Shown here piece by piece: positions 1 to 17,631 of a stretch of DNA of 60,203 nt; position 1 is the first letter of the stretch, and every line of letters begins with the position of its first letter. A program made the translations under genes and the position numbers. Under the pieces are notes generated by a model that did not search any database, was not told the DNA's origin, and saw only the letters and a program-made list of their open reading frames with translations. This stretch comes from a virus (lineage: Duplodnaviria > Caudoviricetes): IMG/VR virus record IMGVR_UViG_3300044624_002303, positions 1-60,203 of that record. One strand, 5' to 3'.

Positions 1-13
1 CTCAACACCAACC

Positions 14-1360: not shown

Positions 1361-1766
1361 CACCTACGGCCTTTCTTCTGAGCAGTACACCGAGTTCTTC
1401 CACAAGAACATTCGTGCTGCTGCCAAGCTTTACCTTGATACCTGCAACATTTTGAGCAGCGAAGGGGTCGGCAATGTTGACTTCAAAACTGTCTCAGAGA
1501 TGTACCAAGAAGCTGTGTACACTACCAACGATGATTGTCGGCGGTACCAAAAGAGTAACAATCCTGAAGCCTTGAAGGAAAACGACATGTATGGTATGGT
1601 TCCTTCTCACCAGGAAATCATTGACATGGTTGAAACCTTGGTGACCTACACCGAAGCTCTTGACGCCAAGCTCCAGGCGCTGACCGACTACGTCAGTAAT
1701 CTGGTCACGATTACCACGGCAGGTCTCGAAGGGATCGCCACTACCCTTGACGATACGGTAGACTGA
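1350..1766 (+). CDS. hypothetical protein with C-terminal coiled coil
   Basis: ATG at 1350 overlaps the upstream gene end; helical C-terminus. Confidence 0.65.
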   Translation: MSIDTYGLSSEQYTEFFHKNIRAAAKLYLDTCNILSSEGVGNVDFKTVSEMYQEAVYTTNDDCRRYQKSNNPEALKENDMYGMVPSHQEIIDMVETLVTYTEALDAKLQALTDYVSNLVTITTAGLEGIATTLDDTVD

Positions 1767-1800
1767 GCAGGCAAGTTTGTTTCATCGGCTTGCAGTCAAC

Positions 1801-1828
1801 CGTCCTGGTCATGACGCAAAACTGACCA
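1801..1828 (+). promoter_or_regulatory. candidate H-type pseudoknot in a 5' leader
   Basis: CGTC/GACG stem; loop TGGTCA pairs with downstream TGACCA after CAAAAC; a similar motif lies at 59601. Confidence 0.4.
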
Positions 1829-1847
1829 CCCATCTCAATACCACACC

Positions 1848-1961
1848 ATGTTTGAATCCTTGTTTGCCGCCGTACTTCCGGTGATGAAAGACTTGCTTTG
1901 GGCAGCGGCTGGCATAGCGCTGACCTATCTCTTCAACAAGTTTCAAACTCAATTCAACTAA
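1848..1961 (+). CDS. 37 aa membrane peptide (absent from the ORF track)
   Basis: MFESLFAAVLPVMKDLLWAAAGIALTYLFNKFQTQFN; AC-rich leader like its neighbours; fills the gap. Confidence 0.55.
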   Translation: MFESLFAAVLPVMKDLLWAAAGIALTYLFNKFQTQFN

Positions 1962-1964
1962 ACC

Positions 1965-2678
1965 ATGACTCAGATCACACAAGCTAAACTCAAGGACTTA
2001 ACTGTCATCAAACTCTACGAGCACTACAATGCTCTTGAAAAATCACTGCCTTTACTTACTCCTGAGTCCCAGGAGCTGGCGAAAGCTGAGCTTGAAAGTT
2101 GTGCCAACCTACGCTCAGAAAAGATTGATCGTATCTATTACGCAATGGCGTCCCATGAGGATGCATTGGAACGCATCAAGAAAGAAGGTGACCTAATTAC
2201 GCAGTCCAAGCGGCACCACGAATCCCAACTGCGATCACTCAAAGGCCTGCTAAATTATTTGCGTCGGGTCCTACCACTGGACTCGAACAAAATCACCGGT
2301 CGCAATTACCAGTTCACCCTTGTTAAAAAGAAGGAACTTACAGTCGAGGTCTCATCGGACCCGGAGTTTTGGCACACTACAGAAAGAGAACTTTATTGCG
2401 TTACAGAAGAAATCACCACAACCAAACGAGTTGTATTACGATCAATGTCAGGAGAAGTTCTTGACGAAAGAACAGAACCTAAAACAACCACTAAAGTCCT
2501 CCCTAACCTCGATGCCATACGCAGCGCCTATCAAGAAGGTCGACAGCTCCCACACGGTGTCAAAGTCGTCCAAGAATACTCAGTACGATCCAAGCGCATC
2601 TTTGGAGAGCCAAGGGTGGAAATGGTTTCATCCGAGTATCCAAGCGAGTTTTTACGAGAAGATTCCAGCGCCGACTGA
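1965..2678 (+). CDS. siphovirus Gp157-like protein
   Basis: N-terminal coiled coil (EKIDRIYY...ERIKKE...LKGLLNYL) and C-terminal PNLDAIR...LPHGVKVVQEYSVR typical of Gp157/Gam-like proteins. Confidence 0.6.
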   Translation: MTQITQAKLKDLTVIKLYEHYNALEKSLPLLTPESQELAKAELESCANLRSEKIDRIYYAMASHEDALERIKKEGDLITQSKRHHESQLRSLKGLLNYLRRVLPLDSNKITGRNYQFTLVKKKELTVEVSSDPEFWHTTERELYCVTEEITTTKRVVLRSMSGEVLDERTEPKTTTKVLPNLDAIRSAYQEGRQLPHGVKVVQEYSVRSKRIFGEPRVEMVSSEYPSEFLREDSSAD

Positions 2679-2925
2679 TTGTGATGACGCTCGTATCAAG
2701 ATGAGCTGTCATGATCACGCCATCAAAGACTTTGATCTTCAACTGGAGATGAACGGTCTACAGCTAGACATGCTCAAAGAAAACGGAGAGGTTATTCCTT
2801 ACCACCTTGATGAGCATAGTGATCTTGAGGAAAAGAAACTCAAGCTTCTTGTTGGTAAACGGTTTCACCAAAATTCATCCAATGCATATTGGTACTACCT
2901 CCAGCGGGAAAAGTCAGCTAAGTAA
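2602..2925 (+). CDS. hypothetical protein (start uncertain; frame open from 2320)
   Basis: The 3' part fills the gap after Gp157; possible TTG start at 2602 or ATG near 2701. Confidence 0.5.
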   Translation: MESQGWKWFHPSIQASFYEKIPAPTDCDDARIKMSCHDHAIKDFDLQLEMNGLQLDMLKENGEVIPYHLDEHSDLEEKKLKLLVGKRFHQNSSNAYWYYLQREKSAK

Positions 2926-2959
2926 ATGCCTGTACAATAGGTAAAGCTGTAGGAGTCTC

Positions 2960-3223
2960 ATGGGTGGCGATCAAGTTCTTAATAAGTTGATTGCTGGTTT
3001 CACCAATGATGGGACTCCTCTTTCTGCAACAATTGGTTCCAAGATGGAGCATGGTGTTGTCATCTTGACAGCAGCCATGCTTTCTAATGAAAACCTTGCT
3101 GCATCAATGCATGCAGAAGAAATGGTTGATGCCGCAATTAACTATTACAACATTATCCAACAACGTCTTGGTTACTACCAGCAGGATCAAGCGCATTCAT
3201 TAGAAAGGCTTCTAGGAAGTTAA
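2960..3223 (+). CDS. hypothetical protein
   Basis: AGGAG SD and a TACAAT box upstream; 87 aa. Confidence 0.7.
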   Translation: MGGDQVLNKLIAGFTNDGTPLSATIGSKMEHGVVILTAAMLSNENLAASMHAEEMVDAAINYYNIIQQRLGYYQQDQAHSLERLLGS

Positions 3224-3259
3224 ATTCCTGCTAAGGTAAGTAAGTCTTTATTCCAAGGA

Positions 3260-3469
3260 ATGAAAACCGTTCCCGTTCCCAGATTGACCTTGTCATTTGA
3301 GGTTGACATTGAAGTTGAGTACAACTCTTTTGGCGGCAAAACTGCCGATGAAATTGCAGAAGCCCTTCAAGATGAACTCCATAACCTTGTCTTTGAGTTA
3401 GATCAGGTTATCGGGATGGACTCCCACTGCACATCCATTGCACCTTACAACCAACATGATGAATTCTGA
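3260..3469 (+). CDS. hypothetical protein
   Basis: AAGGA upstream; acidic, 69 aa. Confidence 0.6.
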   Translation: MKTVPVPRLTLSFEVDIEVEYNSFGGKTADEIAEALQDELHNLVFELDQVIGMDSHCTSIAPYNQHDEF

Positions 3470-3701
3470 TTACCTTGCCGGCTGGGACGTTAACGCTGAG
3501 CAACGCAAGGCTGATTTTATGGAGCACATGTACCAATGCAGCGGGCGTGCCAAGGCTGCTCCCGGTGTTGTTGGTCTTTACACTGGTCTATGGGAAAACT
3601 TCTGTCTTCGGGAAGCTGGTCCCATCATGCGGGATCGGTACTTTGAAATGATGGAAGCTGTCCGTCTTTACGAGGAAGGCAAGCTCAAACCTGTTTCTTA
3701 A
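3456..3701 (+). CDS. hypothetical cyanophage protein
   Basis: ATG overlapping the upstream stop; RKADFMEHMYQ...GLYTGLW motif. Confidence 0.65.
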   Translation: MMNSDYLAGWDVNAEQRKADFMEHMYQCSGRAKAAPGVVGLYTGLWENFCLREAGPIMRDRYFEMMEAVRLYEEGKLKPVS

Positions 3702-3765
3702 GGTTTACACTGAACACACTTTTGTTGTTGGACGTGCCACACTAGTGGTACGTCCCTTTTTACTT

Positions 3766-4128
3766 ATGGACACCACACAAGAACCTATAGACAGCGTTAA
3801 AAGCTGGCAAGATTGGTACCGCAAACACCGTATTGTTGCTCAAACGGACAAACCTTTAGAAGCCAAAGACTTACGCGAAAACATGCACGACACCACCAAC
3901 GCAGTTGAGACTTTGATCGACACTGATCCAAAAGCAATGTGGATTGAAAAAGCACGTGAGCATTTTGCTGACACACTTGCTGAATACCAATACGAATTGA
4001 GTGGTAAAGACTTCTACAAAGCTTTTTACCAGGCAGCAGTAGAAGCAATGGGCTATTCAGAAAAAGAATATCAACGCACCAAAGAACTGGTTGATATGCT
4101 GCGCTATCATCACCTTGGTCAAGACTGA
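3766..4128 (+). CDS. hypothetical protein
   Basis: ATG at 3766; TGATG coupling to the next gene. Confidence 0.6.
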   Translation: MDTTQEPIDSVKSWQDWYRKHRIVAQTDKPLEAKDLRENMHDTTNAVETLIDTDPKAMWIEKAREHFADTLAEYQYELSGKDFYKAFYQAAVEAMGYSEKEYQRTKELVDMLRYHHLGQD

Positions 4129-4367
4129 TGTCACGTGCGAATGATTCTGAATATCCGCAGTGGATCTGCCATTGCTGTGGTGAGAACTATGGCACGTGGT
4201 ACAAGCGTGGTACCTATGTAGGACCGCCGCATCACTATGCCACCTACCACCAAGGTACGTGTGGTGTGTGTGGTGCTGTAGATGTATCTGTCACTGAACC
4301 TCGTGATTATGGACATCTACGCGCCAAGTGGCGTAGTGAGATAATAAAGAAAGGAAATAAGAATTAA
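4128..4367 (+). CDS. small zinc-binding protein
   Basis: ICHCCG...CGVCG...TEPRDYG, two CxxC pairs. Confidence 0.6.
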   Translation: MSRANDSEYPQWICHCCGENYGTWYKRGTYVGPPHHYATYHQGTCGVCGAVDVSVTEPRDYGHLRAKWRSEIIKKGNKN

Positions 4368-4371
4368 TGCA

Positions 4372-5691
4372 ATGCCAGTATATAGAGAAGCGGGTGAACC
4401 CCTTCTATATGAAGTCGTAAAAGTACAGACTTGCAGTGGTCAACCCCTTGAGGTAACTACTGCAAGTGGTAATACTGTTTATACGCAACCTGCAGGAATG
4501 GCAGGAGATGCATTTGGAAGAACACGTGTATCAGCACCTCTGACCCTATTTGATTCAAGCCATCGTTATAACGACAATGGATTGTGGTCTACCTCCAGTG
4601 GTGCTGGTGGTACGTTTGCATTCAACGCAAACCAAGGTCTTGTTGATCTCAACGTAACCACTACATCTGGTTCTGAGATCATCAGGGAAACCAACAAGGT
4701 CTGTTCATATCAACCAGGGAAATCCTTGTTGTTTATGTCGACCTTTGTGATGAATGCTCCAAAAGCTAACCTGCGGCAACGTGTTGGTTACTACGGTGCT
4801 TCTAATGGTTTGTATCTAGAGGTTAGTGGTACCACGGAACCTGCCCTTGTTGAACGTAGTGCTGTAACTGGAAGCGTTACTGAAACACGAGTAGCACAAG
4901 CTAACTGGAACATTGACAAACTAGATGGCAATGGACCCTCAGGCTTTACGCTTGATCTCACCAAGGCTCAAATCCTTTGGTTTGATATTGAATGGCTTGG
5001 CCTTGGTACTGTACGTGCAGGGTTTGTCATCAACGGTGCATTCATTCACTGCCATTCATTCCATCACGCTAACCTAATCACATCCACTTATATAACAACG
5101 GCATCTTTGCCGTTGCGTTATGAAATTACTAATGTAGATACTACGGCAAGCAGCAGTACATTAAAACAAGTTTGTTCGACAGTCCTATCGGAAGGCGGAT
5201 ATGAACTGCGTGGAGCACAGTCTGCCATTGGTACTCCGATTGCATCACCACGTGATTTAACAGTCATCTCCACTGAGTACCCTGTCATTTCTATTCGTCT
5301 TAAATCAACCCGTCTTGATGCAATTGTTATTTTGACCGCCTTATCAATCATGGGTATTACTAACAATTCAAACTACAACTGGAAAGTAATTGTTGGGGGT
5401 ACAACCACAGGGGGATCATGGGATACCACTGGAACAACTTCTTCCGTTGAATACAACATCACTGGCACTTCCTTTACCATGGGAACAGGACGTGTGTTGG
5501 CAAGTGGTTTTGCCACTGGTTCTAACCAAGGATCAACCGTTATTGACATCTTGAAAGAAGCATTGTTTGCATTCCAGTTGGAACGCAATGGTCTTACCAG
5601 TACTGCCACGGAATTAACCTTGGTATGCAGCAGTGCCCAAGCTGGAGCTGATGTCCTTTCTTCCATGGACTGGGAGGAAATTTCAAGATGA
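4372..5691 (+). CDS. conserved phage beta-rich protein, probably structural
   Basis: 439 aa, Thr/Ser/Gly rich; DAFGRTRVS...YQPGKS...EWLGLGTVR...DWEEI family motifs seen in phages. Confidence 0.6.
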   Translation: MPVYREAGEPLLYEVVKVQTCSGQPLEVTTASGNTVYTQPAGMAGDAFGRTRVSAPLTLFDSSHRYNDNGLWSTSSGAGGTFAFNANQGLVDLNVTTTSGSEIIRETNKVCSYQPGKSLLFMSTFVMNAPKANLRQRVGYYGASNGLYLEVSGTTEPALVERSAVTGSVTETRVAQANWNIDKLDGNGPSGFTLDLTKAQILWFDIEWLGLGTVRAGFVINGAFIHCHSFHHANLITSTYITTASLPLRYEITNVDTTASSSTLKQVCSTVLSEGGYELRGAQSAIGTPIASPRDLTVISTEYPVISIRLKSTRLDAIVILTALSIMGITNNSNYNWKVIVGGTTTGGSWDTTGTTSSVEYNITGTSFTMGTGRVLASGFATGSNQGSTVIDILKEALFAFQLERNGLTSTATELTLVCSSAQAGADVLSSMDWEEISR

Positions 5692-5735
5692 GTCGTTAAT
5701 ACGCTATAATTTACAGGCGCGTTACCGCTTGTTTT

Positions 5736-6293
5736 GTGTCCATCCTCTTAAAAAACAGGCTTTCCCTAAAAGCCCATCGTACTTTGATTGAAGGACGTTT
5801 CTACATTTGTACAGAATCCCCCAGTGGATTGCGGTATAAAGTAAACTTACGTGGCTCTGCCAAAGCAGGTGCTGTTGCAGGTTCTTGTAATCACAACGGT
5901 TATTGGCAAATTGGTATCCGCATAAATGGAACATATAAAAAATTTCAAGCACATCGTATTGTTTATTTTCTTCAAACAGGTACAGATCCCGGTGAGTTAA
6001 TTGTTGATCACGCACAAGGAGTTGAAAACCCGCTTGATTTAAGGGGAGGTACTCAAAGCGATAACTTGGGTAACGCAAAAAAAAGATTGTTGGTAAATGG
6101 TAAACCAACAACAAGCAAATACAAAGGAGTTAGTTGGTTTACTTCCACACAAAAGTGGCGAGTTGAAATAAGACATCAAGGTAAATCAATTCATCTTGGT
6201 TATTTTGACGATGAAGTTACTGCTGCTTTGATGTATGATGCAAAAGCATTTGAGTTACGTGGAGACAAAGCACGTTTAAACTTTCCGCATTAG
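5736..6293 (+). CDS. HNH endonuclease with AP2 DNA-binding domain
   Basis: AHRIVY...VDH...N..DLR HNH-like core plus SKYKGVSW...KWRVEI...HLGYFDDEVTAALMYD AP2 domain. Confidence 0.85.
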   Translation: MSILLKNRLSLKAHRTLIEGRFYICTESPSGLRYKVNLRGSAKAGAVAGSCNHNGYWQIGIRINGTYKKFQAHRIVYFLQTGTDPGELIVDHAQGVENPLDLRGGTQSDNLGNAKKRLLVNGKPTTSKYKGVSWFTSTQKWRVEIRHQGKSIHLGYFDDEVTAALMYDAKAFELRGDKARLNFPH

Positions 6294-6326
6294 CCGCTGA
6301 TAAACTAGAACTATTGATTAAAAGCT

Positions 6327-6890
6327 ATGTATACCCCTGGTCCTCAAACGCAACAACCACCCCAGATGAGGGTAGAACCACTCAATTCTGGGGTGACTCC
6401 AGAGCCTCAAGCAAAGCCCAAGGCTCCTGGTAAATCAAAGAATGGTGACGTCGGGGCCTTCATCCAGCAATGCATCTCCCTTTCCTCCTACCTCAAGGAA
6501 CTTGAGACACAAGCCCATCTCATTCACCTGAACATAGAAGGTGCAAACTTTCTTGGTCTCCACGGGTTCCTTAAAGGTCAGTACGAAGCTCATTTGGAAC
6601 AGTTTGATACGTTGTCTGAATTTATTCGGTCAATGGACTACCTGCTTCCACTTTGTAGCAAAGGTTTAGCAGATGCTAGCCCAAGAATACAACATTGTAC
6701 CAGCTACAAAAACACAGATATGCTTACTGTGTACTATAAAAATCTTGAAGAGCTGGGAATGAAAACCAAAAAACTAGAACCTATTGCGGCTAAGATTGGC
6801 GCAATTGACATTCAAAACTATATGGCTGATCTTTGTGGTCAGGCTTTTAAAGCCGCATGGATGATTAAAGCGACTCTTCGTAATTCTTAA
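6327..6890 (+). CDS. dps: Dps/ferritin-like DNA-protection protein
   Basis: HLIHLNIEGANFLGLH...QYE...FDTLSEFIR...KAAWMI Dps signature; P/Q/K-rich N-terminal tail. Confidence 0.75.
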   Translation: MYTPGPQTQQPPQMRVEPLNSGVTPEPQAKPKAPGKSKNGDVGAFIQQCISLSSYLKELETQAHLIHLNIEGANFLGLHGFLKGQYEAHLEQFDTLSEFIRSMDYLLPLCSKGLADASPRIQHCTSYKNTDMLTVYYKNLEELGMKTKKLEPIAAKIGAIDIQNYMADLCGQAFKAAWMIKATLRNS

Positions 6891-7326
6891 GATAAAGAAT
6901 TGCTGTCTCAAAATATTGAATGTTATCTTCTAACATCCCAAGGGCTGTATTGCATTTTTTACAAAGCAGCCCTCTTACTTTTCCTGTTCTATGACAATGA
7001 TCAACTGATAAATTTTGTCCTGAACTACATTGTTTTTTGCAGATTAAACAAAGACCGTTTTGTTTCTTAAACATAATTTCATATTCTTCTTTACTTAAGC
7101 CATATCTTTTAAGCCAAGCAGTGTGCCGTTTGGCTTCACTACATTTGTTCCAATATTTTGAACTTGCTTTTCTGTAAACTTCTGGATTTTGAGTCCGATA
7201 TTTGGCGGTTGCTAATCCATGACAAATTTTGCATCTGCGCATATGACCATCTTTGACTCGACTTTCTTTGTAAAAAGCTTCAAGTGGCTTTAGTTTTTTG
7301 CAAGAGCTGCAAATTTTTTCTGTCAT
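6865..7326 (-). CDS. endonuclease VII-family HNH homing endonuclease
   Basis: KICSSCK...RYGLSKEEY...QNGLCLIC...LSVDHCHRTGKVRGLLCKKCNTALG. Confidence 0.88.
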   Translation of the reverse strand: MTEKICSSCKKLKPLEAFYKESRVKDGHMRRCKICHGLATAKYRTQNPEVYRKASSKYWNKCSEAKRHTAWLKRYGLSKEEYEIMFKKQNGLCLICKKQCSSGQNLSVDHCHRTGKVRGLLCKKCNTALGMLEDNIQYFETAILYLKNYEESL

Positions 7327-7351
7327 TACGAAAATTTTAATTACGAATATC

Positions 7352-7606
7352 CTAGCACTGCCAGTGCTCAAGCCTATGACAGTTGCAGCATAGCGGAATA
7401 CATTTACTGATCTCTTCCTCTACCCTGCTCCAGGCGTAACCATGGTTGACCATGGATGAGATGTTATTGTCCTTGTCACCTATGTGGTGGAACTCAAGGA
7501 CACGATGATCATTCAACCCACACTTCTTGCACTGCAAAGTCTTCTTGTACTCCAGAAGCTTTTGTCGATTCTTATCGATACGTTTTTTAGCAGTGTCCCA
7601 GGTCAC
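7352..7606 (-). CDS. small HNH endonuclease
   Basis: CKKCG...LEFHH...EEISKCIPLCCNCHRLEH. Confidence 0.8.
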   Translation of the reverse strand: MTWDTAKKRIDKNRQKLLEYKKTLQCKKCGLNDHRVLEFHHIGDKDNNISSMVNHGYAWSRVEEEISKCIPLCCNCHRLEHWQC

Positions 7607-7680
7607 GTATAGTTTTTGTGCACGTGTACCTATAATTTATCAGTTTTCTCAATAAACGTGGTTTATTGAGATTCTTAATA

Positions 7681-7756
7681 GCACCTGGGTAGGAGTCGAA
7701 CCTACATCGTCCTGCAGCGGCAGTAACCGTCTTATCCAATTAGCTCGGACCAGGTG
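7681..7756 (-). ncRNA. tRNA-like RNA with a non-canonical anticodon arm
   Basis: Acceptor CACCTGG/CCAGGTG, T-arm GTAGG-TTCGACT-CCTAC, D-loop AATTGGATA; the anticodon arm closes a 4-nt loop (CTGC-CGCT-GCAG). Confidence 0.65.
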
Positions 7757-7757
7757 A

Positions 7758-7829
7758 TCGGGAATGCAGGGATCGAACCTGCGACTTTCTGCTCCCAAAG
7801 CAGACGCGCTACCGCTGCGCTAATTCCCG
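7758..7829 (-). tRNA. tRNA-Pro(TGG)
   Basis: Canonical cloverleaf: CGGGAAT/ATTCCCG, D-arm GCGC/GCGC, TCTGC-TTTGGGA-GCAGA, T-arm GCAGG-TTCGATC-CCTGC; no encoded CCA. Confidence 0.95.
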
Positions 7830-7832
7830 GTG

Positions 7833-7918
7833 TTAGGGCAAGGATGTCCGCCTACGATGATCTACGATGCGGCCGAGGGGATCCTTTGTTTAATACAACG
7901 TTCCTTGTTGCACCCTGA
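7833..7918 (-). ncRNA. candidate structured ncRNA between tRNAs
   Basis: Ends pair (AGGG..CAAGGA / TCCTTG.CCCT); internal CCGC/GCGG hairpin; no ORF. Confidence 0.4.
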
Positions 7919-7989
7919 TCGGTCGTGCTGGAATCGAACCAGCTTTCTCGTGCATTGTCTGCCCGTCCTTACCAATAGACTACCGACCG
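7919..7989 (-). ncRNA. tRNA-like RNA with a degenerate anticodon arm
   Basis: Acceptor CGGTCG/CGACCG, D-arm GTCT-ATTGGTAA-GGAC, T-arm GCTGG-TTCGATT-CCAGC; anticodon arm GCA-GACAA-TGC has a 5-nt loop and no U33. Confidence 0.65.
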
Positions 7990-7993
7990 AGTG

Positions 7994-8077
7994 ACCCCCT
8001 GGTTTGTGCATCATCCTGAAAACCATTTTGGTGACGTCAACAAAATGGTCTACGTATAGGAGCTAAGCATAGGGGGT
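7994..8077 (-). ncRNA. candidate structured ncRNA (possibly abiF-motif-like)
   Basis: Terminal stem ACCCCCT/AGGGGGT, inner TCCT/AGGA and 9-bp ACCATTTTG/CAAAATGGT hairpin, 3' GGATGATGCACAAACC. Confidence 0.45.
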
Positions 8078-8084
8078 GTTGTTA

Positions 8085-8167
8085 ATAGATGGATGCAGTG
8101 TAACTGGCTTACCGACAATCGGGCTGTGAGTTAACCAGGCGTATCCAGACAGTGACTGCACCTCTAT
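8085..8167 (-). ncRNA. candidate structured ncRNA
   Basis: Terminal stem ATAGA.GTGCAGT/ACTGCAT..TCTAT; inner CTGG/CCAG and CCGA/TCGG. Confidence 0.4.
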
Positions 8168-8169
8168 CT

Positions 8170-8263
8170 TGGGCTCTCCTTCTAGGCTATCTGCCTAACG
8201 AGTCACCCAGCCTTCGCGCTTGCCGAATGGGTCCCCGGCGCATCAGCGGCCAACTGAGCCCCA
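8170..8263 (-). ncRNA. candidate structured ncRNA
   Basis: Terminal GGGCTC/GAGCCC; inner ACCCA/TGGGT with TTCG/CGAA, and a TAGGC/GCCTA hairpin. Confidence 0.4.
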
Positions 8264-8285
8264 TCAAAAGAGAGGGGGAACAAAA

Positions 8286-8921
8286 TTATTCTACATGCTT
8301 TACCTCATACATGTAATGGTCTGATGTCTCCAGCTTCCTTTTGTTTTCTACCGAATACACCGTCATATCAATCTCATACCCTGGGTTCTGTTTGATACGG
8401 TTAAAGGTCCAGGCGTTGTCATACCAAATGATTCGGTTGTTGGGATACGCATAGTAATTACCGCTGTCCATCTTGAAAAGATGGGCGCACTTATGCTCGG
8501 GTGTCTCTGAGAAATTAAAGTCGGTCGTACCCTTGTTTTCCCATGACCAATCAAGCGTAAACATGTAGGAGCCAAGAGCCTTCTCACCGCTGGGCTTGAT
8601 CAATTCAGCTTGCAACCCGGCAAGTCGTGCACGTTTCTGAACGTCAATATAAGGTGAGAAGCAGTCCCAGTACATCACGTCTTCCAACGGCTCAACGGGT
8701 GCATCAGGCTTCCAGCAGAACGCATGTAGGGGACGCCGTGTCCAATTCACGCCATTCTCAAGGAAGGCTTCAAAGAGAGGTACACGCTTCTCAATACTGG
8801 CAACGCAGTGCACATCACACTTGGTCACCTCGCCATGACCTTGCTTGTGGTTGTAAAGAAACTCGTTGCGGATGTAGCACGACCAATCGGGAAGGTTGTG
8901 ATTCAAATACGCCACGTACAA
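8286..8921 (-). CDS. conserved phage hypothetical protein
   Basis: YLNHNLP...WDCFS...YMFTLDW...SETPEHKCAH...PNNRIIW; start may be GTG at 8915. Confidence 0.75.
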   Translation of the reverse strand: MYVAYLNHNLPDWSCYIRNEFLYNHKQGHGEVTKCDVHCVASIEKRVPLFEAFLENGVNWTRRPLHAFCWKPDAPVEPLEDVMYWDCFSPYIDVQKRARLAGLQAELIKPSGEKALGSYMFTLDWSWENKGTTDFNFSETPEHKCAHLFKMDSGNYYAYPNNRIIWYDNAWTFNRIKQNPGYEIDMTVYSVENKRKLETSDHYMYEVKHVE

Positions 8922-8947
8922 AAAATCCCGGTTGTTATACCGGGATC
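8918..8947 (-). terminator. Rho-independent terminator-like hairpin
   Basis: ATCCCGGT-ATAACA-ACCGGGAT followed by a T-run on the - strand. Confidence 0.55.
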
Positions 8948-9052
8948 ATACTTCCTTCCCACTCAGACTGTTGCTAAGCACTACGTTCGTAACGTGAAGG
9001 AGCTTTCGACTATTAGCTCCGGAGCGGTATTGCTCCGTATGTCAGGATATCA

Positions 9053-9217
9053 CTATTTTTTCTTTTTTGCGGCTGCGGCTTTCTTTGCTTCGATCATTGC
9101 TTTGAACTTGTCGCGGGCAGCAGCTTGCTTGTCGGTGCCACCTGCTTTGCCTTTATCCGGAGCTTTTTTACCCTTGGGAGGAACAGCTTTACCTTTAGGC
9201 GGAACTGCTTTAGCCAT
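9053..9217 (-). CDS. 54 aa Lys/Ala-rich basic protein (absent from the ORF track)
   Basis: MAKAVPPKGKAVPPKGKKAPDKGKAGG...AKKKK; histone H1-like composition. Confidence 0.65.
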   Translation of the reverse strand: MAKAVPPKGKAVPPKGKKAPDKGKAGGTDKQAAARDKFKAMIEAKKAAAAKKKK

Positions 9218-9247
9218 AATCGTTAAGTATCTTTATTGATTATAAAG

Positions 9248-9448
9248 TTACTTACCTTGTTTATAACGACGGGCGGCACGTCCGGCTTTTTTGGCACGTT
9301 CAGTGTTAGCTACAAATTGTTTACCTTCTCTACTACCAGTTCTTTTCTTTTGGTCAGTCTCCTCACGTTCTTCTTTAGACAGTGAAGCCCACGCTTTCTC
9401 TGGTAAATAACGCTTAGTGTATCCTTTTTGAATTGCTTTGTCTGCCAT
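9248..9448 (-). CDS. basic protein, C-terminal half of a split conserved family
   Basis: KRYLPEKAW...ETDQKK...GKQFVANT; TAATG coupling to the upstream gene. Confidence 0.7.
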   Translation of the reverse strand: MADKAIQKGYTKRYLPEKAWASLSKEEREETDQKKRTGSREGKQFVANTERAKKAGRAARRYKQGK

Positions 9449-9732
9449 TATTTGCTTTCCTTGTACTTCTTAGCAGCTGATTTAGCTTTTTCACGTTTCT
9501 CATACTCATCTTTGGTCTGCCACTTTTCTTCGCCCCATTTCTCCAAATCTTTTTGCTTCTCACCTTTGCCGCCTTTGTATCCACCACCAGCTTCTTTGTA
9601 TTCACTGGCAACAAGCTGAGCTTTACGTGCAGACCACTGACCAGGCTTACCACCTTTGGAGCCAGCCATCACGCGATCTTTGATTCGTTCACGTAACTCA
9701 GGTTTTGAGTACTTGCTATCATCCTGCGCCAT
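9448..9732 (-). CDS. basic protein (GGKPGQWSARKAQ family), N-terminal half
   Basis: KYSKPELRERIK...GGKPGQWSARKAQL...GGGY...KWGEEKWQTK. Confidence 0.75.
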   Translation of the reverse strand: MAQDDSKYSKPELRERIKDRVMAGSKGGKPGQWSARKAQLVASEYKEAGGGYKGGKGEKQKDLEKWGEEKWQTKDEYEKREKAKSAAKKYKESK

Positions 9733-9886
9733 CAGGATCTTTATTACGTTCTTTTAGTATTTTAGCCCACTTACATGGACGTGATAATACTTGCTCTAGC
9801 TCCTTGTCAGTTGGGCAAGGAATAGGAAGACTGAACAAATATTTTTCGAGGCGTTCAGCCTCGGTAATGATTCGTCTTTTCGTCAT
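9719..9886 (-). CDS. 55 aa hypothetical protein (absent from the ORF track)
   Basis: MTKRRIITEAERLEKYLF...; fills the gap with short overlaps on both sides. Confidence 0.45.
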   Translation of the reverse strand: MTKRRIITEAERLEKYLFSLPIPCPTDKELEQVLSRPCKWAKILKERNKDPDGAG

Positions 9887-10067
9887 CCCTCTTGGCAAAT
9901 TGCTGCATCAAATCATCGACCTGCTCTAAAGATTCCAAGCGGCACAAAATATCAGAGATGGTGGTAATCGTAACAGGATGCTCCGTACGCGCAGCAAACG
10001 CCAATGCATCACGCATGCAATTAGACGCTTGTTCAATGGACTCCTTAACTTGAGTGGAAAGAGACAT
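9855..10067 (-). CDS. hypothetical cyanophage protein
   Basis: MSLSTQVKESIEQA...RDALAFAARTE. Confidence 0.65.
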   Translation of the reverse strand: MSLSTQVKESIEQASNCMRDALAFAARTEHPVTITTISDILCRLESLEQVDDLMQQFAKRDDEKTNHYRG

Positions 10068-10164
10068 TTCGGAGCTACGGGGTCCTCTTACTATAGTAAA
10101 CATAACAGCTTTCTGAGCTGTTTATATTATGGGGCAAGACAAAATCCTTGGAAAGTACGGATAT

Positions 10165-10746
10165 CTAGTACCAGATCCAACCAATTTGATAGGAATCAAA
10201 CCATGGTTCAATGCCAATTGACTGCATAAGTTCGTAGACAAGACGCCCTTTGCCGTGACGACGTCCATCTGGAGCTTTGATATTGTCGTCAACAACGATC
10301 AAAGTCCCTGGAGCAAGCAAAGAATGTGCTGCAAACATCTCTTTGAGATGGTGGGCAGCCGGTGCCCAGTCATTGTTCCAATCTGTAATGTTGTAAGAAT
10401 CCAGGTAGAGGAGGTCGCATGTACCAGTAAAGGTATCAAGTGCTTCTACGGAATCCGATTCAATAACATCGGCATGCTTGGTGGTTTGCCGAGCCAAAGC
10501 GCAAGCACCTGGATCGATGTCAATTGAAATCAGCTCGCCTTCTCCACGGATGTCGATGTAGTTATCGAACAGAAGTGTTGAGCAGCCATCGCCCGTGTAA
10601 TTGTTTTCTTCTCGATATGTACCAGTTTCAATGATGACTGGATTACTGCGTTCATCTAGGTACTTAAAAACCTTTTGGAAGGTATGCTGACGTGCACCCA
10701 GCTTGTTTTTAATGGGTTTGAAGTAATCGTCCCAGGTACGTGTCAT
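10165..10746 (-). CDS. class I SAM-dependent methyltransferase (Methyltransf_24-like)
   Basis: IIETGT motif I, SIDIDP, DSV, DLLYLDS, IVVDDN. Confidence 0.8.
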   Translation of the reverse strand: MTRTWDDYFKPIKNKLGARQHTFQKVFKYLDERSNPVIIETGTYREENNYTGDGCSTLLFDNYIDIRGEGELISIDIDPGACALARQTTKHADVIESDSVEALDTFTGTCDLLYLDSYNITDWNNDWAPAAHHLKEMFAAHSLLAPGTLIVVDDNIKAPDGRRHGKGRLVYELMQSIGIEPWFDSYQIGWIWY

Positions 10747-10748
10747 TG

Positions 10749-10907
10749 TTATAAGTCGACTCGAGTGTAAGGAATCTCCTTGGATTGTAGCTCTATTTCG
10801 TAAACGTCTGCCTCAATGGTTTCAACATCTTCAAAAGCTAAGCCTTCAAAGCAACCGGTACGACATTCGTCATCAAATTCAAAATAAAAGCGCGTTAAGT
10901 TTGACAT
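10749..10907 (-). CDS. 52 aa acidic hypothetical protein (absent from the ORF track)
   Basis: MSNLTRFYFEFDDECRTGCFEGLAFEDVE...YTRVDL; fills the gap. Confidence 0.55.
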   Translation of the reverse strand: MSNLTRFYFEFDDECRTGCFEGLAFEDVETIEADVYEIELQSKEIPYTRVDL

Positions 10908-11121
10908 CATGGGTTGTGCACCAGATGAAGAGGAAGGTCAGTGCAAGCATGGCGAGACGACCATTGACACGTTCGGCATACCAAAGGTGATCATCAAGGT
11001 TTGTATGCCACTTCCAGAAGCGAAGGTCAGGTGACATCTCTAGGATCCACTCCCAAAGAGCAGGAAGAAGCCAGCCAAAACACGACGCATAACCCTGGAT
11101 GCCAAGAAGGAATTTGTTCAT
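10879..11121 (-). CDS. hli: high-light-inducible protein
   Basis: AERVNGRLAML chlorophyll-binding motif followed by a TM helix. Confidence 0.85.
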   Translation of the reverse strand: MNKFLLGIQGYASCFGWLLPALWEWILEMSPDLRFWKWHTNLDDHLWYAERVNGRLAMLALTFLFIWCTTHDVKLNALLF

Positions 11122-11240
11122 TGACGAGATGCAACTTCCATAAAGAACAAGTAGGCATCCATGCTAATCACGACGAGCATGGCGCCAAGGATTGAGGCGA
11201 TTGCGTAGTTGAATCCGTCCATCACACGTAGTTGACTCAT
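11118..11240 (-). CDS. small single-TM membrane peptide (absent from the ORF track)
   Basis: MSQLRVMDGFNYAIASILGAMLVVISMDAYLFFMEVASRQ; ATGA overlap with hli. Confidence 0.5.
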   Translation of the reverse strand: MSQLRVMDGFNYAIASILGAMLVVISMDAYLFFMEVASRQ

Positions 11241-11273
11241 CTGCTAAGCTAGCAGCAATATACAAAACCATCA

Positions 11274-12128
11274 ATGGTTGCTAAGATAAATACATCGGAT
11301 CCTTGGATTAAAGCCAAGGAAGAGCAACCTGAGATGATGCGGTCACTCAATCGGACCGCAGCCAGAATTACGCTTAACGGCAGACGTCACTATACAACGC
11401 CGTTACCCACTGGACCTGCGCCGTCCGTAACTACTATTATTGGTGAGACAGCTTCCGAAGCAAATAAACGGAAGCTCGAAATGTGGTCAAAAGCTAACCC
11501 AGGTGTTAAAGAAGCTGCTGCCGAAAGAGGTACTGCCATCCACTATGGCATGGAACAGTACCTTAAAGGGAATAAAAACCCTGAAATCAAGGAGGAATAT
11601 GCGGACTTTTGGGCAGGTATGCCGCCAATTCTGGATCAATTTGACGAGATCCTTTGGGCCGAGTCGCCTGTTCTGGATAAATTTAACTTTACTATTGGTT
11701 CTGATGACGTTGCTCGCGTATGGGGCTGTGACTCAGAAGGTCGTGCTTGGGCTGGTGCTCCTGATATTATTGCTGTTGCCAATAACAAACTGACGCTTGC
11801 CGACCTAAAGACCAGCGTCAAACCCTACAGCCGCAAGTGGCCTAAAGATTTGGAGAAGGGGTCCCAGGAGTGGAGGGATCTTTTGAGTGGCCACCTTAAA
11901 TTTAAAAAGACCTGTAAACAGTTGGCTGCCTATGACATCGCTATTGAGCAGACTCTTGGTATGACCGTACAGCAGGCCGCCATCCTGGTGTCAACTCCTC
12001 TACGTACTCAGATTTTTAAAATCTCCAGGAGATTCTTAGATTCTTTACGGGAAGATTGGTATGCGATTGTTGCCGAATACTATTCGCAAATTGAAAATTG
12101 TAATGTGTACGACGCAGATCTGATCTGA
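11274..12128 (+). CDS. PD-(D/E)XK exonuclease
   Basis: PSVTTII...ERGTAIH...AGAPDI...LADLKTS...QLAAY motifs. Confidence 0.85.
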   Translation: MVAKINTSDPWIKAKEEQPEMMRSLNRTAARITLNGRRHYTTPLPTGPAPSVTTIIGETASEANKRKLEMWSKANPGVKEAAAERGTAIHYGMEQYLKGNKNPEIKEEYADFWAGMPPILDQFDEILWAESPVLDKFNFTIGSDDVARVWGCDSEGRAWAGAPDIIAVANNKLTLADLKTSVKPYSRKWPKDLEKGSQEWRDLLSGHLKFKKTCKQLAAYDIAIEQTLGMTVQQAAILVSTPLRTQIFKISRRFLDSLREDWYAIVAEYYSQIENCNVYDADLI

Positions 12129-12165
12129 TTGGGGCCAGGGGGGTCTCTCCTGCCTTGGTAAACTA

Positions 12166-12354
12166 ATGGCTTACAACCCCCAAGGAAAGATGGAGTGCCG
12201 AAAGCGGCTAGCTTGGACGATCGCCTGTGAACGGGCCGTCGTCACAAAAGAAGATGCAGTCCAGATCTACAACAAGGTAATGAAAGAATTTGAAACAATA
12301 GATAAGCGGCAACAATACAAAGAGCGTGAGTCTAATAAGACTCAGCTAACTTAA
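12166..12354 (+). CDS. hypothetical protein
   Basis: 62 aa ORF directly after a TAAACT box. Confidence 0.55.
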   Translation: MAYNPQGKMECRKRLAWTIACERAVVTKEDAVQIYNKVMKEFETIDKRQQYKERESNKTQLT

Positions 12355-12421
12355 TAATCTCTTGATGGGCTTCATGGGTTGGGAGCCGTAGGATAAGAAG
12401 ACACACAACCAGGCCCTCCCC

Positions 12422-12607
12422 ATGGACGTACACGTCGGCTTGGGTGAGTGGACTTACAGTCTCATGAGTCGCATGATGAATGCGATGGACGGGGATTGTT
12501 TTGTTCTGCCCACCCTCATGCATCTTCATGCGTACACAATCTTAAAAGAGGCCTCCTTCCCCGATCGGGACTTTAAAGTAGTAATCAAGAACTCCACAGA
12601 AGTATGA
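12422..12607 (+). CDS. hypothetical protein
   Basis: ATGA overlap with the primase start. Confidence 0.55.
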   Translation: MDVHVGLGEWTYSLMSRMMNAMDGDCFVLPTLMHLHAYTILKEASFPDRDFKVVIKNSTEV

Positions 12608-15258
12608 CGAACCAGAATTTGAAAGCTCTTAAGCCAGGTGAAATCCGACTAGATTACATCCCACTTGATTGGCCCCTTACTCCCCTTGGACCCAACAAAG
12701 ATCCCTACATCCAGGGCTGGCAGAACAAACCATTCAGTGTTCGTGAAATTGAAGAGGAGCTGGCAACAGGTGACTGCCAAGCAATTGGGTTACTTGGTGG
12801 TCCTGCCTATAACCATCCCTATGGCTTGGTCTGGGTTGATGTTGATGGACCTAGTGTCTACCCACTCATTGAGCAAATCTCCGGCCTTCCCCTCCAAGAC
12901 GCGCTGCCTGCCACCCTTACCATCTTCAGTGGTAAAGTCGGCCGCGAACGGAAGCTCTACAAATTAAACCGCGATAAACACAAGCATTTCCTACGCAACA
13001 AGTACACCTGGCACGGGGAAGAAAACAAAGAAAAGCTTGAGATCCTTTGGAAAAAGCACCAAGGTGTTTTGATGGGTGTTCATCCAGAGACGGATGGATA
13101 CTACACCGGTGAAGAGCTGGGATTTGAGTGGTCCGACAACCTGCCTGAACTGCCGGAATGGATCCTCAATAACATCATCACCAAAAATGCCAAGCAAGGT
13201 AAGCCTGCCCAAGAAGTATCACGTGTGATCGGCGGGAACTTCGCCATCCAAAGTGTCGTTGGGTTGGATCGTGATATCCAACTTGCGTCCGAAGCAATGT
13301 GGGGTATGCCTCCAGAAGCGACGGATGACTATGACATCTGGATCATGGTTGGTCAGTCGCTCCATAGCTTGGATGAATCGCTGCTGGATGAATGGGATGA
13401 ATGGTCCAAGCAAAGCGATAAGTACAAAGATGGTGAATGCCACAGGCGTTGGCTCTCCTTCAGTAAAGGTGGTGGTCGTGGTATTGGCTCACTAATCCAT
13501 ATTGCCCAAGAAAATGGATGGAAGCCATCACAGGACTATCGCGTACAAAGCGTTGATGACGCAACACTAGAGGCAATTGCTTCAATCTTACCCAACCTTG
13601 AAGGCGACACATTAGAGCACATGGAAAGAGTATTAGCGCAAAATGCGGAAACACTTCAAACATCTAAGAATCCTGTAAAAACAAAACCATCAACGCGCAG
13701 CAGGAAAAAAGAAACGGATGGAGAAGAACCTAAGGATGCCAGGGGGCACAACAGACCATCTCATGAGATAGCTGATCAATTGCTTGTTGCGTACGCAGGT
13801 GATTTGTTGTTTAGTCAGCCCCACAACCAGTTCTTTCTCTATGACAAGAGGAAGGGTCTATGGGAGAAAAAGACCAAGATCGAGATGTATGGCAGCATCA
13901 GGGATAACCTGAAAGATCTTGCTGCTTCTGGTTGGTTGCCCAGGGGGTTTAACCACAACCTGATGGAGGACATGTACAAGCAGCTCCAAGCGTTGGTGCC
14001 ATTTGATGACTGGTATGACGAAACGGACTACCTGCTCTTTACCAATGGTTTGTTAGATGTTGGTACCAGGGAATTGCTTCCCTTCCAGCGAGAACTACAT
14101 GTAACGCAACAGATGCCGTATGAATATGATCCATCGGCTACCTGTGAAGAAATTATTAAATGGCTGAAGCATACGCAACACAATTCGTGGAATCGCACTC
14201 AAGTGCTGAGGGCATGGCTCAGGGCAACACTGCTTGGTAACTACGAAATCCAGAAGTTCTTGGAGATTGTGGGTCCAGGTAAGTCAGGTAAGTCCACCTA
14301 CGCAAACCTCGCCGTGGCATTGGTAGGACGCAGTAATACCTATTCCACAGACTTTGAGAACATGGAGAAAAACAGGTTTGAAGCAGCGGCCTATATGGGT
14401 AAAAAGCTCCTCCTGTTCCAGGATGCTGATCGTTGGGGTGGTTCCGTATCCAGGCTAAAAGCAATCACCGGTAATGACTGGATTCGTTCTGAGCGCAAGT
14501 ACCAAGGGGAAGCATTAGATCCATTTCAGTACCATGGGATGGTCATCATCACAGCTAATGAAGCTATTCAGTCCACCGACTATACTTCTGGTCTGGCTCG
14601 TCGCCGTCTCACCATTCCGTTTGACCGTCCATTTATGGGTGGACAAGCAGAACAAAAAGAGCTGATCAAGTTTGATAACAAAGGAAATCCAGAAGGTGAG
14701 TTTGCGTCTCTGCTACCAGGGCTTGTGAACTGGCTGCTGGATATGCCGGAAGCTGACATGCGTTCTTACCTCATGGAAACCGCACAACATGTGGACTTCT
14801 TCCAGAAGTATGAGAAGGAGCAAAGCCTGCGTTCCAACCCACTGTTGGATTGGATGAGCCAGCATCTTGTTTATGATCCGGGCATGTTCTCGTACGTTGG
14901 TACTTGCAAGAATGCTATGGGGTCAAGCAACTTCTACCAAGAATGGGAAAGATGGTTGTACCCAAGCTATGCAGAGTTCTGCCGTAGCTGTAATGTTGGC
15001 TTTGTGGGACGTGCTCGATTTGAAGTGCTGTTTTTTGATATCTGTAAGCACCAGCTCAAACTCAATGTTTTCAACAGGAAAACAAATGTTGGCTTGCAAG
15101 TGTTTAACGTCATCGTTAGGGGTTCAAACGCTAAGTACAAAGACTATCCTTCCGTTGTTGAAGTAGCAGCTAACCCGCAGGAATTTATCCAGCTATACGG
15201 AGTGGACATTAGTGCGCCTACCAATGCGACAATGGAGAATATTGCGGAAGTCATGTGA
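12604..15258 (+). CDS. primase-polymerase / PriCT-2 / D5-like SF3 helicase
   Basis: N-terminal Prim-Pol (WPLTPL..K.P, VWVDVDG); PriCT-2 (DYDIWIMVGQSLH..WDEWS); D5_N (LLFTNGLLD); Walker A GPGKSGKST; LKAITGND; RRRLTIPF. Confidence 0.92.
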   Translation: MTNQNLKALKPGEIRLDYIPLDWPLTPLGPNKDPYIQGWQNKPFSVREIEEELATGDCQAIGLLGGPAYNHPYGLVWVDVDGPSVYPLIEQISGLPLQDALPATLTIFSGKVGRERKLYKLNRDKHKHFLRNKYTWHGEENKEKLEILWKKHQGVLMGVHPETDGYYTGEELGFEWSDNLPELPEWILNNIITKNAKQGKPAQEVSRVIGGNFAIQSVVGLDRDIQLASEAMWGMPPEATDDYDIWIMVGQSLHSLDESLLDEWDEWSKQSDKYKDGECHRRWLSFSKGGGRGIGSLIHIAQENGWKPSQDYRVQSVDDATLEAIASILPNLEGDTLEHMERVLAQNAETLQTSKNPVKTKPSTRSRKKETDGEEPKDARGHNRPSHEIADQLLVAYAGDLLFSQPHNQFFLYDKRKGLWEKKTKIEMYGSIRDNLKDLAASGWLPRGFNHNLMEDMYKQLQALVPFDDWYDETDYLLFTNGLLDVGTRELLPFQRELHVTQQMPYEYDPSATCEEIIKWLKHTQHNSWNRTQVLRAWLRATLLGNYEIQKFLEIVGPGKSGKSTYANLAVALVGRSNTYSTDFENMEKNRFEAAAYMGKKLLLFQDADRWGGSVSRLKAITGNDWIRSERKYQGEALDPFQYHGMVIITANEAIQSTDYTSGLARRRLTIPFDRPFMGGQAEQKELIKFDNKGNPEGEFASLLPGLVNWLLDMPEADMRSYLMETAQHVDFFQKYEKEQSLRSNPLLDWMSQHLVYDPGMFSYVGTCKNAMGSSNFYQEWERWLYPSYAEFCRSCNVGFVGRARFEVLFFDICKHQLKLNVFNRKTNVGLQVFNVIVRGSNAKYKDYPSVVEVAANPQEFIQLYGVDISAPTNATMENIAEVM

Positions 15259-15605: not shown

Positions 15606-15609
15606 TTGT

Positions 15610-15646: not shown

Positions 15647-15670
15647 ACGGCAACCAACATCACTGGTCAC

Positions 15671-17612: not shown

Positions 17613-17631
17613 TCAGGTCCAAGGGGACCAG

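Follow-up and report, generated by a model that had tools for sequence, protein, structure and literature searches.

A tRNA-type array in a Caudoviricetes contig holds tRNAPro and six non-decoding structured RNAs

The IMG/VR virus contig IMGVR_UViG_3300044624_002303 (Caudoviricetes) carries an array of small RNA genes, which is the subject of this study. The whole stretch of DNA that was analyzed, 60,203 nucleotides (nt) in length, is hereafter called the window. As read from the sequence, seven RNA units (u1 to u7) tile positions 7681-8263 of the window head to tail on the minus strand (Table 1). One of them, u2, is tRNAPro with the anticodon UGG. The other six do not decode: u1 and u4 are look-alikes of tRNA, u5 is assigned by its sequence to the abiF RNA family, and u3, u6 and u7 match no Rfam family at E values up to 10. 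The seven-unit array is real, not an artefact, and is richer than first described. We are highly confident that the seven units are genuine RNA genes maintained by selection, and each of the six non-decoding units is under selection for its fold. A first-pass annotation had described small structured RNAs set contiguously around a single true tRNA, as one cassette. The tiling of the units, the covariation of their helices and the co-orientation of 690/690 features in viral loci uphold that description. Its unit coordinates agree with our own boundaries within 0-3 nt, and the spacers between the units are 1-8 nt.

Table 1. Positions of the array units, their parts and the neighboring features in the window
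Feature	Position	Strand	Description
u7	8262-8171	-	composite RNA (u7a insert and u7b core)
u7a	8209-8262	-	5' strand GGGGCUC and 47-nt insert (8209-8255); core GCGCC...GCAAGCGC
u7b core hairpin	8171-8208	-	38 nt; P1, A-CUC-GU, P3 (UAGGC/GCCUA), loop AGAUA, GAAG-GAG, P1'
u6	8168-8085	-	scaffold RNA, 84-nt form
u5	8076-7994	-	abiF-family RNA (assigned by sequence) with inserted hairpin
u4	7989-7919	-	tRNA look-alike
u3	7916-7835	-	three-way-junction RNA
u2	7829-7758	-	tRNA-Pro (UGG)
u1	7756-7681	-	second tRNA look-alike
Promoter-like site	8288-8317	-	ATTACA, 18 nt, TAGAAT; precedes the first unit by about 25 nt
11-bp hairpin	7647-7671	-	after the last unit; terminator-like on the + strand only
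HNH endonuclease ORF (84 aa)	7352-7606	-	directly downstream of the array; start 75 nt past u1
Endonuclease VII ORF	6865-7371	-	downstream of the array, after the HNH ORF
Upstream gene	8286-8921	-	phrog_3704 'ferredoxin', E 4.5e-51; no Pfam family

A single tRNA in the window

At the gathering threshold, the search of all 60,203 bases against Rfam gave a single match. This was u2, which scored 70.7 bits against the tRNA family (RF00005), the cut-off of which is 29. The unit forms a cloverleaf with a 7-nt anticodon loop, is called Pro-UGG by ARAGORN and does not encode CCA. Over the whole window, ARAGORN reported two genes, tRNA-Pro(tgg) at 7758-7829 and 'tRNA-Cys(aca)' at 7917-7990. The latter corresponds to u4 and is a look-alike without a decoding role, so the earlier count of a single canonical tRNA stands.

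The units u1, u3, u5, u6 and u7 had no credible Rfam match in 7500-8450 at E values up to 10. Matches of non-tRNA units to mir-7386, Plastid-ycf2, HIV-1 SL3 and SNORD94 were rejected because they are at chance level (E 1.7-8.5) and far under the cut-offs. The RNA families manA (RF01745) and wcaG (RF01761) gave no match in the window at the gathering threshold, nor in 7500-8450 at E values up to 10.

Helices of the six non-decoding units covary among relatives

Judged from the window sequence alone, end-paired structure is weak: the folding z scores of the single units against shuffles, from u1 to u7, were -1.90, -2.65, -0.36, -2.28, -3.02, -0.94 and -0.73. The earlier proposal that the ends of each unit pair and enclose internal hairpins thus gains little from single-sequence folding, but the families of the six non-tRNA units recur in IMG/VR and in metagenome contigs, and their helices keep pairing across relatives; this comparative evidence is strong. 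The IMG/VR relatives were gathered by short-word seeds taken from the units and then by BLAST within the fetched loci. The exact-word seeds fix 14-24 nt, and variation in the seeded stretches is under-sampled.

The proportion of paired cells across relatives was 98.8% for u3, 99.7% for u4, 100% for u1, 95.1% for u5, 100% for u6 and 89.9% for the u7 core, and the slid controls gave 28-64% pairing over the six families. Pairs that changed on both sides numbered 7 of 20 in u3, 11 of 19 in u4, 7 of 22 in u1, 9 of 12 in the family alignment of u5, all six of the P2 helix of u6 and 7 of 13 in the u7 core. In every one of the six families, the observed covariation score was reached by 0/500 shuffles. 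The scores were 0.355 for u3 (0.192 in shuffles, at most 0.144 in slid controls), 0.488 for u6 (0.135 in shuffles) and 0.366 for the u7 core (0.111 in shuffles). Absence of conservation and covariation of the terminal stems in relatives had been named beforehand as part of a disproof; both were found for all six non-tRNA units.

The minus-strand orientation had been assumed at first. It is now supported by the tRNA, the T-arms, the orientation of the abiF RNA, the G-U cells and the co-orientation of the features. The G-U pairs count in favor of the minus strand, since they would be C-A on the other strand; such G-U or U-G cells number 18 in u3 and 19 in the u7 core.

A different explanation is that the region codes for small peptides, for example by a 33-codon GTG frame through u6 or by open reading frames (ORFs) of 49-54 amino acids (aa). 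The first-pass annotation had seen no ORF here. This is correct for ORFs that reach 60 aa and lie inside the region, but six ORFs of 49-54 aa in the mechanical ORF list overlap it, and u7 contains AAGGAG 14 nt before a GTG. Against a coding role, the variation is compensatory in helices and does not fall at third codon positions, the indels of relatives (47 and 73 nt) are not multiples of three, and the u6 forms of 56, 58, 67 and 84 nt have only the stem scaffold in common. We regard a peptide-coding region as scarcely credible.

u1 and u4 are tRNA look-alikes

The unit u4 (7919-7989) scored 33.8 bits against the Rfam tRNA model. This is above the cut-off (29), but the alignment leaves out the anticodon arm. 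Its acceptor stem, D-arm and T-arm are tRNA-like, and all of them are paired in 18/18 distinct sequences except for one cell. In place of the anticodon arm there is a 4-base-pair (bp) stem with a bulged A and a pentaloop, GA(C/U)AA, in which a single position varies, between C and U. The 5-bp anticodon stem and 7-nt anticodon loop of a tRNA are missing from u4. Among the pairs that change on both sides in the 18 distinct sequences are 4/4 of the substitute arm. Within this family, ARAGORN assigned five kinds of 'anticodon' (aca, atg, caa, aac and 'ca') and named the genes His(atg), Leu(caa), Val(aac), Cys(aca) or '???' (loci L002, L004, L010, L026, L030, L051 and others). Because the name varies from copy to copy, the u4 family holds no real anticodon. 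In other words, u4 resembles a tRNA but does not decode. Automatic tRNA counts of cyanophages are probably inflated by this family, whose 'anticodons' are impossible.

The unit u1 has a 7-bp acceptor stem, U8, a D-loop that carries GG (AAUUGGAUA) and a T-arm with GGUUCGA. Where a tRNA has its anticodon arm, u1 has a 7-bp stem with a bulged A, capped by a 4-nt loop. BLAST of the fetched loci found u1 in 26 loci of relatives, with 8 distinct sequences. The pairs changed on both sides lie in the acceptor, D, substitute and T arms: the acceptor and T stems covary together with two D-stem pairs, and in the substitute arm one pair changed on both sides and one on one side. ARAGORN made no call for u1, and no Rfam match was obtained at E values up to 10. 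Thus, u1 is a second tRNA look-alike, unrelated to u4. When D-arms were compared in search of a parent tRNA, u4 was weakly nearest to phage tRNAGlu and tRNAHis, and u1 was near to none.

It might be considered that u1 and u4, and perhaps other units, are decaying tRNA pseudogenes of a once larger array, and that the rest is drifting spacer. The score of u4 above the tRNA cut-off, the ARAGORN call and the resemblance of its D-arm to those of phage tRNAGlu and tRNAHis fit this view. Decay does not account for the substitute arms, which are conserved and covary in both units, nor for the acceptor and T stems, which pair by way of compensatory changes in 18 (u4) and 8 (u1) distinct sequences. The near-invariant pentaloop of u4 likewise argues against decay. 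Furthermore, u4 keeps about 80% identity to the Synechococcus phage S-CREM1, while a megablast search with 20 kb of the window (1-20000) found no match in the phage collection. To judge from the sequences compared, loop conservation and covariation largely refute the decay explanation, and we consider it extremely unlikely.

u5 as an insert-bearing member of the abiF family

The architecture of u5 consists of P1 (CCCCCU/AGGGGG), an unpaired A, P2 (UGC/GCA), a 3' bulge CAAACC and a closing U. In addition, u5 carries a 46-nt hairpin (P3), which replaces part of the terminal loop. The unit aligns with canonical abiF RNAs of related arrays that score 46.8-55.8 bits in Rfam (RF03085), and it has the 6-bp P1, the unpaired A, the 3-bp P2 and the 6-nt 3' bulge CAAAYN of that family. 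The loop differs: the consensus 11-nt terminal loop CUCUCAACGAU is replaced in u5 by UUAGC, the 46-nt hairpin and UGAU. In the alignment of abiF RNAs with u5, P1 was 92.5% paired, with 6/6 pairs changed on both sides, and P2 was 100% paired. This alignment comprises 51 sequences, namely the window and 50 of 65 pattern hits; the 15 left out were one identical to the window, one out of register, one long-insert variant and 12 begun at an upstream chance site. The insert-bearing form is shared by 15 further distinct sequences. Their hairpins are short (about 12 nt) or long (about 46 nt) and occur in two abiF sub-lineages, and the canonical, short-hairpin and long-hairpin forms have common flanks and a common position in the array. 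On this comparison, u5 is classified as an insert-bearing variant of the abiF RNA family.

According to the available text of three reports, abiF RNA is the antitoxin of AbiF (Abi_2, a HEPN ribonuclease (RNase)) in a type III toxin-antitoxin system, and the RNA binds the protein and blocks the RNase (10.1101/2025.04.15.648962; PMC12737573; PMC13064643). No Abi_2 (PF07751) gene was found beside u5 or anywhere in the 60-kb record, which is 76% complete by CheckV. Because the record holds no such gene, u5 is an orphan. The same appears to apply generally: the phage abiF copies are, as far as their sequences tell, orphans of a real antitoxin family. The u5 word occurs in 31 IMG/VR stretches, and at least 118 metagenome stretches contain the 22-mer of the cyanophage-type abiF core. 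Among the matches listed, 89/118 of the abiF-core stretches hold a tRNA and 323/323 of the tRNAs lie on the strand of the motif. Of 52 distinct ORFs of at least 100 aa that start within 700 nt downstream of the abiF core, again among the matches listed, one encodes Abi_2. This is in locus L371 (47-1040, minus strand), where the 22-nt abiF core and a leader AACAACACA stand behind a promoter-like site and before a 306-aa Abi_2 protein (E 1.6e-57). L371 is a genuine AbiF locus, and its leader is common to the phage abiF copies.

Two side observations concern abiF RNAs elsewhere. The Atlas neighbors of the Abi_2 protein of L371 are from Bacillota, Actinomycetota and Bacteroidota. A stand-alone sub-type with P1 CCUCCC/GGGAGG occurs in metagenome stretches (L308, L323, L330, L356 and L358), where its promoter is TTGACA...TATAAT-like, its leader of about 40 nt is conserved and neither a tRNA nor Abi_2 is nearby; in L308, it is followed by a hairpin with a T run.

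Structures of u3, u6 and u7

The fold of u3 is a three-way junction. It is built from P1 (GGG/CCC), the hairpin P2 with its loop AAGGAAC, P3, in which an A is bulged, and P4, whose loop reads AUCGUAGA-(variable)-AUCGUAG. Little or no variation was seen in the loop sequences AAGGAAC, AUUAAA and AUCGUAG, the last of which occurs twice. The u3 alignment comprises 24 distinct sequences, that is, the window and 23 sequences that fit a length-limited pattern; six distinct variants were left out, of which five have an insertion in the loop of P4 and one (L021) departs from the others downstream of P4. A 20-mer of u3 was present in 55 IMG/VR stretches, and 53/55 of these have at least one ARAGORN tRNA within 1.5 kb. 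The phages S-CREM1 and DSL-LC03 also carry u3.

The scaffold of u6 is composed of GAUAGAGG, a 6-bp P2, CNCUGU, a variable apical domain, YAC, P2' and UCCAUC. BLAST found u6 in 34 fetched loci. There are 34 distinct members, in 56-, 58-, 67- and 84-nt forms. The alignment used 24 sequences, namely 23 of the 34 hits and the window. In the 67-nt form (L071, L305, L337 and L391), the apical domain is a hairpin of the u7-core type, which consists of CGU, 5 bp, ACAUA or AAAUA, 5 bp and GAAGGCG. Thus, modules can nest as well as string together.

The unit u7 is made of an insert and a core hairpin. The u7 word was found exactly in 33 IMG/VR stretches, and a degenerate pattern was found in 57, which represent 29 distinct sequences. 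The alignment of the core has 29 rows, in which three probable chance matches were kept. In many phages, the u7 core directly follows a tRNA. Close relatives, among them L089, L096, L099, L102 and L115, lack the 47-nt insert, whose fold is a predicted one. A core like that of the insert stands alone upstream of abiF in L061, L063, L078 and L083. Kinship of the insert with wcaG, suggested by the shared AGCGCGAAGG, was rejected because the model of wcaG stops short of that stretch and the structure differs.

Modules turn over in phage tRNA arrays

The phage S-CREM1 matches u3 and u4 with 79.9% identity, and the matching stretch lies in an unannotated gap between its tRNALeu and tRNAMet. In DSL-LC03, the match to u3 stands beside a tRNA. 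The S-CREM1 array also holds abiF, manA and wcaG RNAs, which score 52.2, 96.6 and 92.7 bits in Rfam. In 176 viral loci, all modules and tRNAs are co-oriented (690/690 features, none on the minority strand). A tRNA or look-alike was located within 12 nt of 14/17 instances of canonical abiF, 13/23 of insert-bearing abiF, 27/41 of u3 and 23/45 of u7. The order of the modules differs between relatives. For example, L009 has u7-u6-u3 without a tRNA and L018 has u7-u6-(other)-u3-Pro; further orders are u7-u6-u3-Pro, u7-u6-abiFx-Pro-u1 and u7-u6-abiFx-u4-Pro-u1. Modules are gained or lost singly between close relatives. On the strength of these alignments, the six families appear to behave as interchangeable cassettes in phage tRNA arrays.

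The main rival to a set of trans-acting RNAs is that the folds serve processing or stability, as RNase entry sites or 3' protection, or are recombination joints, and yield no trans-acting product. The modules are flush against tRNAs, and relatives differ by whole modules that are cut exactly at their borders. In addition, 18/52 of the ORFs downstream of abiF-bearing arrays, among the matches listed, encode HNH or endonuclease VII proteins, as in the window; such nuclease genes fit with mobile, recombining cassettes. Other evidence is difficult to reconcile with this explanation. Here six folds accompany a single tRNA, and the u7-u6-u3 array of L009 stands without any. Even between distant phages, strict conservation is seen in unpaired loops (AAGGAAC and AUCGUAG in u3, GA(C/U)AA in u4 and AGAUA in u7), which suggests specific partners, not generic hairpins. 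Furthermore, one module belongs, by its sequence, to a known family of trans-acting antitoxin RNAs, and some abiF copies stand alone with their own promoter and terminator (L308 and L356). We consider a role confined to processing, stability or recombination fairly unlikely.

As a separate observation, homing-type nucleases seem to travel with abiF-bearing arrays, and in the window the HNH and endonuclease VII genes occupy 6865-7606. The nuclease SegB accompanies the tRNA cluster of phage T4.

Like the modules of the window, manA and wcaG RNAs stand inside tRNA arrays, co-oriented and flush with tRNAs (S-CREM1/L002, 1198-1412 and 1785-1882; L010, L039 and L051). The phage manA and wcaG may be free RNAs of the same kind. 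A further explanation is that the folds are riboswitch-like or attenuator elements that regulate the downstream HNH or endonuclease VII gene or the upstream gene in cis: manA and wcaG share such arrays and were first proposed as cis-regulators, according to the text available of that report (PMC2864571), and the HNH ORF starts shortly past u1. However, the same modules occur in many orders beside many different genes and are usually bounded on both sides by tRNAs, and seven serial elements before an 84-aa ORF correspond to no known regulatory layout. Regulation in cis therefore seems very unlikely.

Transcription of the array

Close relatives have TATAAT at the position of the promoter-like site, before the same leader. 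The hairpin downstream of u1 is followed on the minus strand by AAAACUGA, not by a U run, and is possibly the end of the operon. The stretch 7636-8296 is covered by metatranscriptome contigs from 4 runs of 3 studies. No contig lies on 7400-7635, and a single one was found in 8300-8600, at 8472-8600; stretches without cover prove nothing. Contigs from two runs represent forms without u4 (73 nt missing, with 5 other letters instead) or without the u7 insert, with joints from 7916 to 7990 and from 8208 to 8267, respectively. We rejected the contig ends at 8208/8209 and both joints as RNA ends or splicing, since they match relatives that lack these modules and are strain variants. Because the variants correspond to module-lacking relatives in IMG/VR, several array variants co-exist in nature.

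A proposed mechanism and the points that weigh on it

We propose that the array is a small-RNA operon, in which one minus-strand transcript holds tRNAPro and six non-decoding RNAs, is processed by RNases and yields RNAs that act in trans as counter-defence. Taken as a whole, this statement is in our judgment an even call. A single transcript led by the promoter would start near 8285. RNase P and RNase Z (or RNase E) of the host would be expected to cut at u4, tRNAPro and u1. These cuts would free u3 and the 3' end of u5, as in the T4 tRNA cluster, and the products would be 40-95 nt in length. During infection, u5 would keep a host AbiF-type HEPN RNase inhibited, as pseudo-ToxI reportedly does for ToxN. 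The look-alikes u1 and u4 may be processing handles or, more speculatively, tRNA-body decoys that resist cleavage.

The part of the proposal in which the products act in trans on RNA-binding proteins of the host as counter-defence is tentative and somewhat on the improbable side. Its clearest case is u5, for which such a role is plausible from the sequence, since both abiF stems and the single-stranded 3' bulge are kept. The first-pass annotation had suggested a set of decoy or antitoxin RNAs. For u5, which groups with an antitoxin family and is an orphan, this suggestion is partly supported; for u1, u3, u4, u6 and u7, the leads are structure and context only.

Several further points weigh against the operon as proposed. 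The significance given by the shuffle controls is overstated because the sequences of a family are related. The promoter scan was no better than chance, with one site in the region and 1.1 expected from shuffles. The RNA runs were used as assembled contigs, which may hold DNA and show neither ends nor strand; the cover of the array is therefore a hint of transcription only. The units u7, u6 and u5 are consecutive without a tRNA-like unit between them, and tRNA-type cleavage alone therefore cannot separate them. The window u5 gave no Rfam abiF hit at E values up to 10 in the region or the whole record (cut-off, 37 bits). It has lost most of the conserved abiF terminal loop CUCUCAAC and may therefore no longer bind AbiF. 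Finally, a 14-mer scan of genome contigs returned mixed phyla; among the matches listed, 80 were titled and none named a cyanobacterium, so the scan is uninformative on hosts. Titles and abstract openings in the literature held nothing pertinent on AbiD/AbiF in Synechococcus.

A more general picture can be drawn, in which cyanophage tRNA arrays are platforms for the expression and processing of an RNA-only counter-defence: orphan abiF RNAs and their insert-bearing variants would silence abortive-infection HEPN RNases, u1 and u4 would be uncleavable decoys for nucleases that target tRNA, and u3, u6 and u7 would mimic the RNA partners of further host defence proteins. We regard it as doubtful and rather unlikely in this full form. 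If it were true, the turnover of cassettes between close relatives would reflect an arms race. More modestly, the array may help in disarming host defences. One module is tied to an RNA of known biochemistry, the AbiF antitoxin, and neutralisation of AbiF is therefore directly and cheaply testable.

Relation to known systems

The first-pass annotation had called the array an undescribed system, which is too strong. In phage T4, RNAC and RNAD are matured together with the tRNAs. These RNAs (species 1 and 2) are described, in the available parts of two reports, as small non-tRNA RNAs in the tRNA cluster whose role is unknown (PMC3014915; PMC9697503). They are the closest precedent, since the window likewise holds non-tRNA RNA genes inside a co-oriented phage tRNA-type array. 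The likeness is drawn from the layout. In contrast to T4, the window has six families instead of two, one true tRNA, two tRNA look-alikes, one apparent member of a known antitoxin family and cassette-like turnover. The presence of abiF RNA in S-CREM1 is also in print: in the parts available, abiF, wcaG, manA and glnA RNAs are annotated in its tRNA region and no role is given for abiF RNA (PMC9964418; abiF in a cyanophage also in PMC12197685). The S-CREM1 array, from a cultured Synechococcus phage, is of the same kind as that of the window and contains adjacent homologues of u3 and u4 that are unannotated in its record. The window differs from it in having neither manA nor wcaG, and the S-CREM1 paper predates the AbiF antitoxin papers of 2025.

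With the abiF RNA of RF03085, u5 shares two stems, P1 (6 bp) and P2 (3 bp), together with the unpaired A, the closing U and the 3' CAAACC bulge. Unlike the abiF system, u5 has its loop broken by a 46-nt hairpin and is a single copy in a tRNA-type array with no toxin gene behind it. The logic proposed for u5 resembles that of pseudo-ToxI of phage PhiTE, which the phage is said to carry as a mimic of a type III antitoxin RNA; in both, an orphan phage copy of a host RNA antitoxin would silence an abortive-infection RNase. ToxI is a tandem repeat that is processed by its own toxin. In contrast, u5 is one hairpin unit of another family, and its mimicry is proposed here by analogy. As for the look-alikes, the mascRNA of MALAT1 and the tRNA punctuation of mitochondria are tRNA-shaped folds that recruit RNase P or RNase Z and define the ends of their neighbors. 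The proposed use of u1 and u4 is alike. Those systems are eukaryotic and organellar, whereas u1 and u4 have conserved substitute arms, which suggest a function of their own.

The role of the small stable RNAs of phage tRNA clusters has been open since T4, and the array reveals such RNAs as a widespread and modular phenomenon among cyanophages. At least five covariation-supported RNA families are added that Rfam 15 lacks or holds only as a weak tRNA match. In the parts of the literature covered, with most subscription journals outside the scope, no description was found of u1, u3, u4, u6, u7, the insert-bearing abiF or phage abiF acting against AbiF. Six IMG/VR contig numbers of relatives were absent from the supplements of PMC10690425 (10,006 candidate viral RNAs) other than files 1, 2 and 4.

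Source genome and neighboring genes

The record is an IMG/VR virus contig with a CheckV completeness estimate of 76%. In the genome, PHROGs named a terminase large subunit, virion structural proteins, a tail fibre, endolysins, a primase, an S-adenosylmethionine decarboxylase and several HNH or endonuclease VII genes. The closest matches to the DNA of the gene that flanks the array are Synechococcus phages, and the window stretch is present in lake, freshwater, wetland and soil metagenome runs. The source is probably a freshwater cyanophage and the host is likely a cyanobacterium. Homologues of the upstream gene at 8286-8921 are labelled 'PurM' in several Synechococcus phage records, a name that disagrees with 'ferredoxin'.

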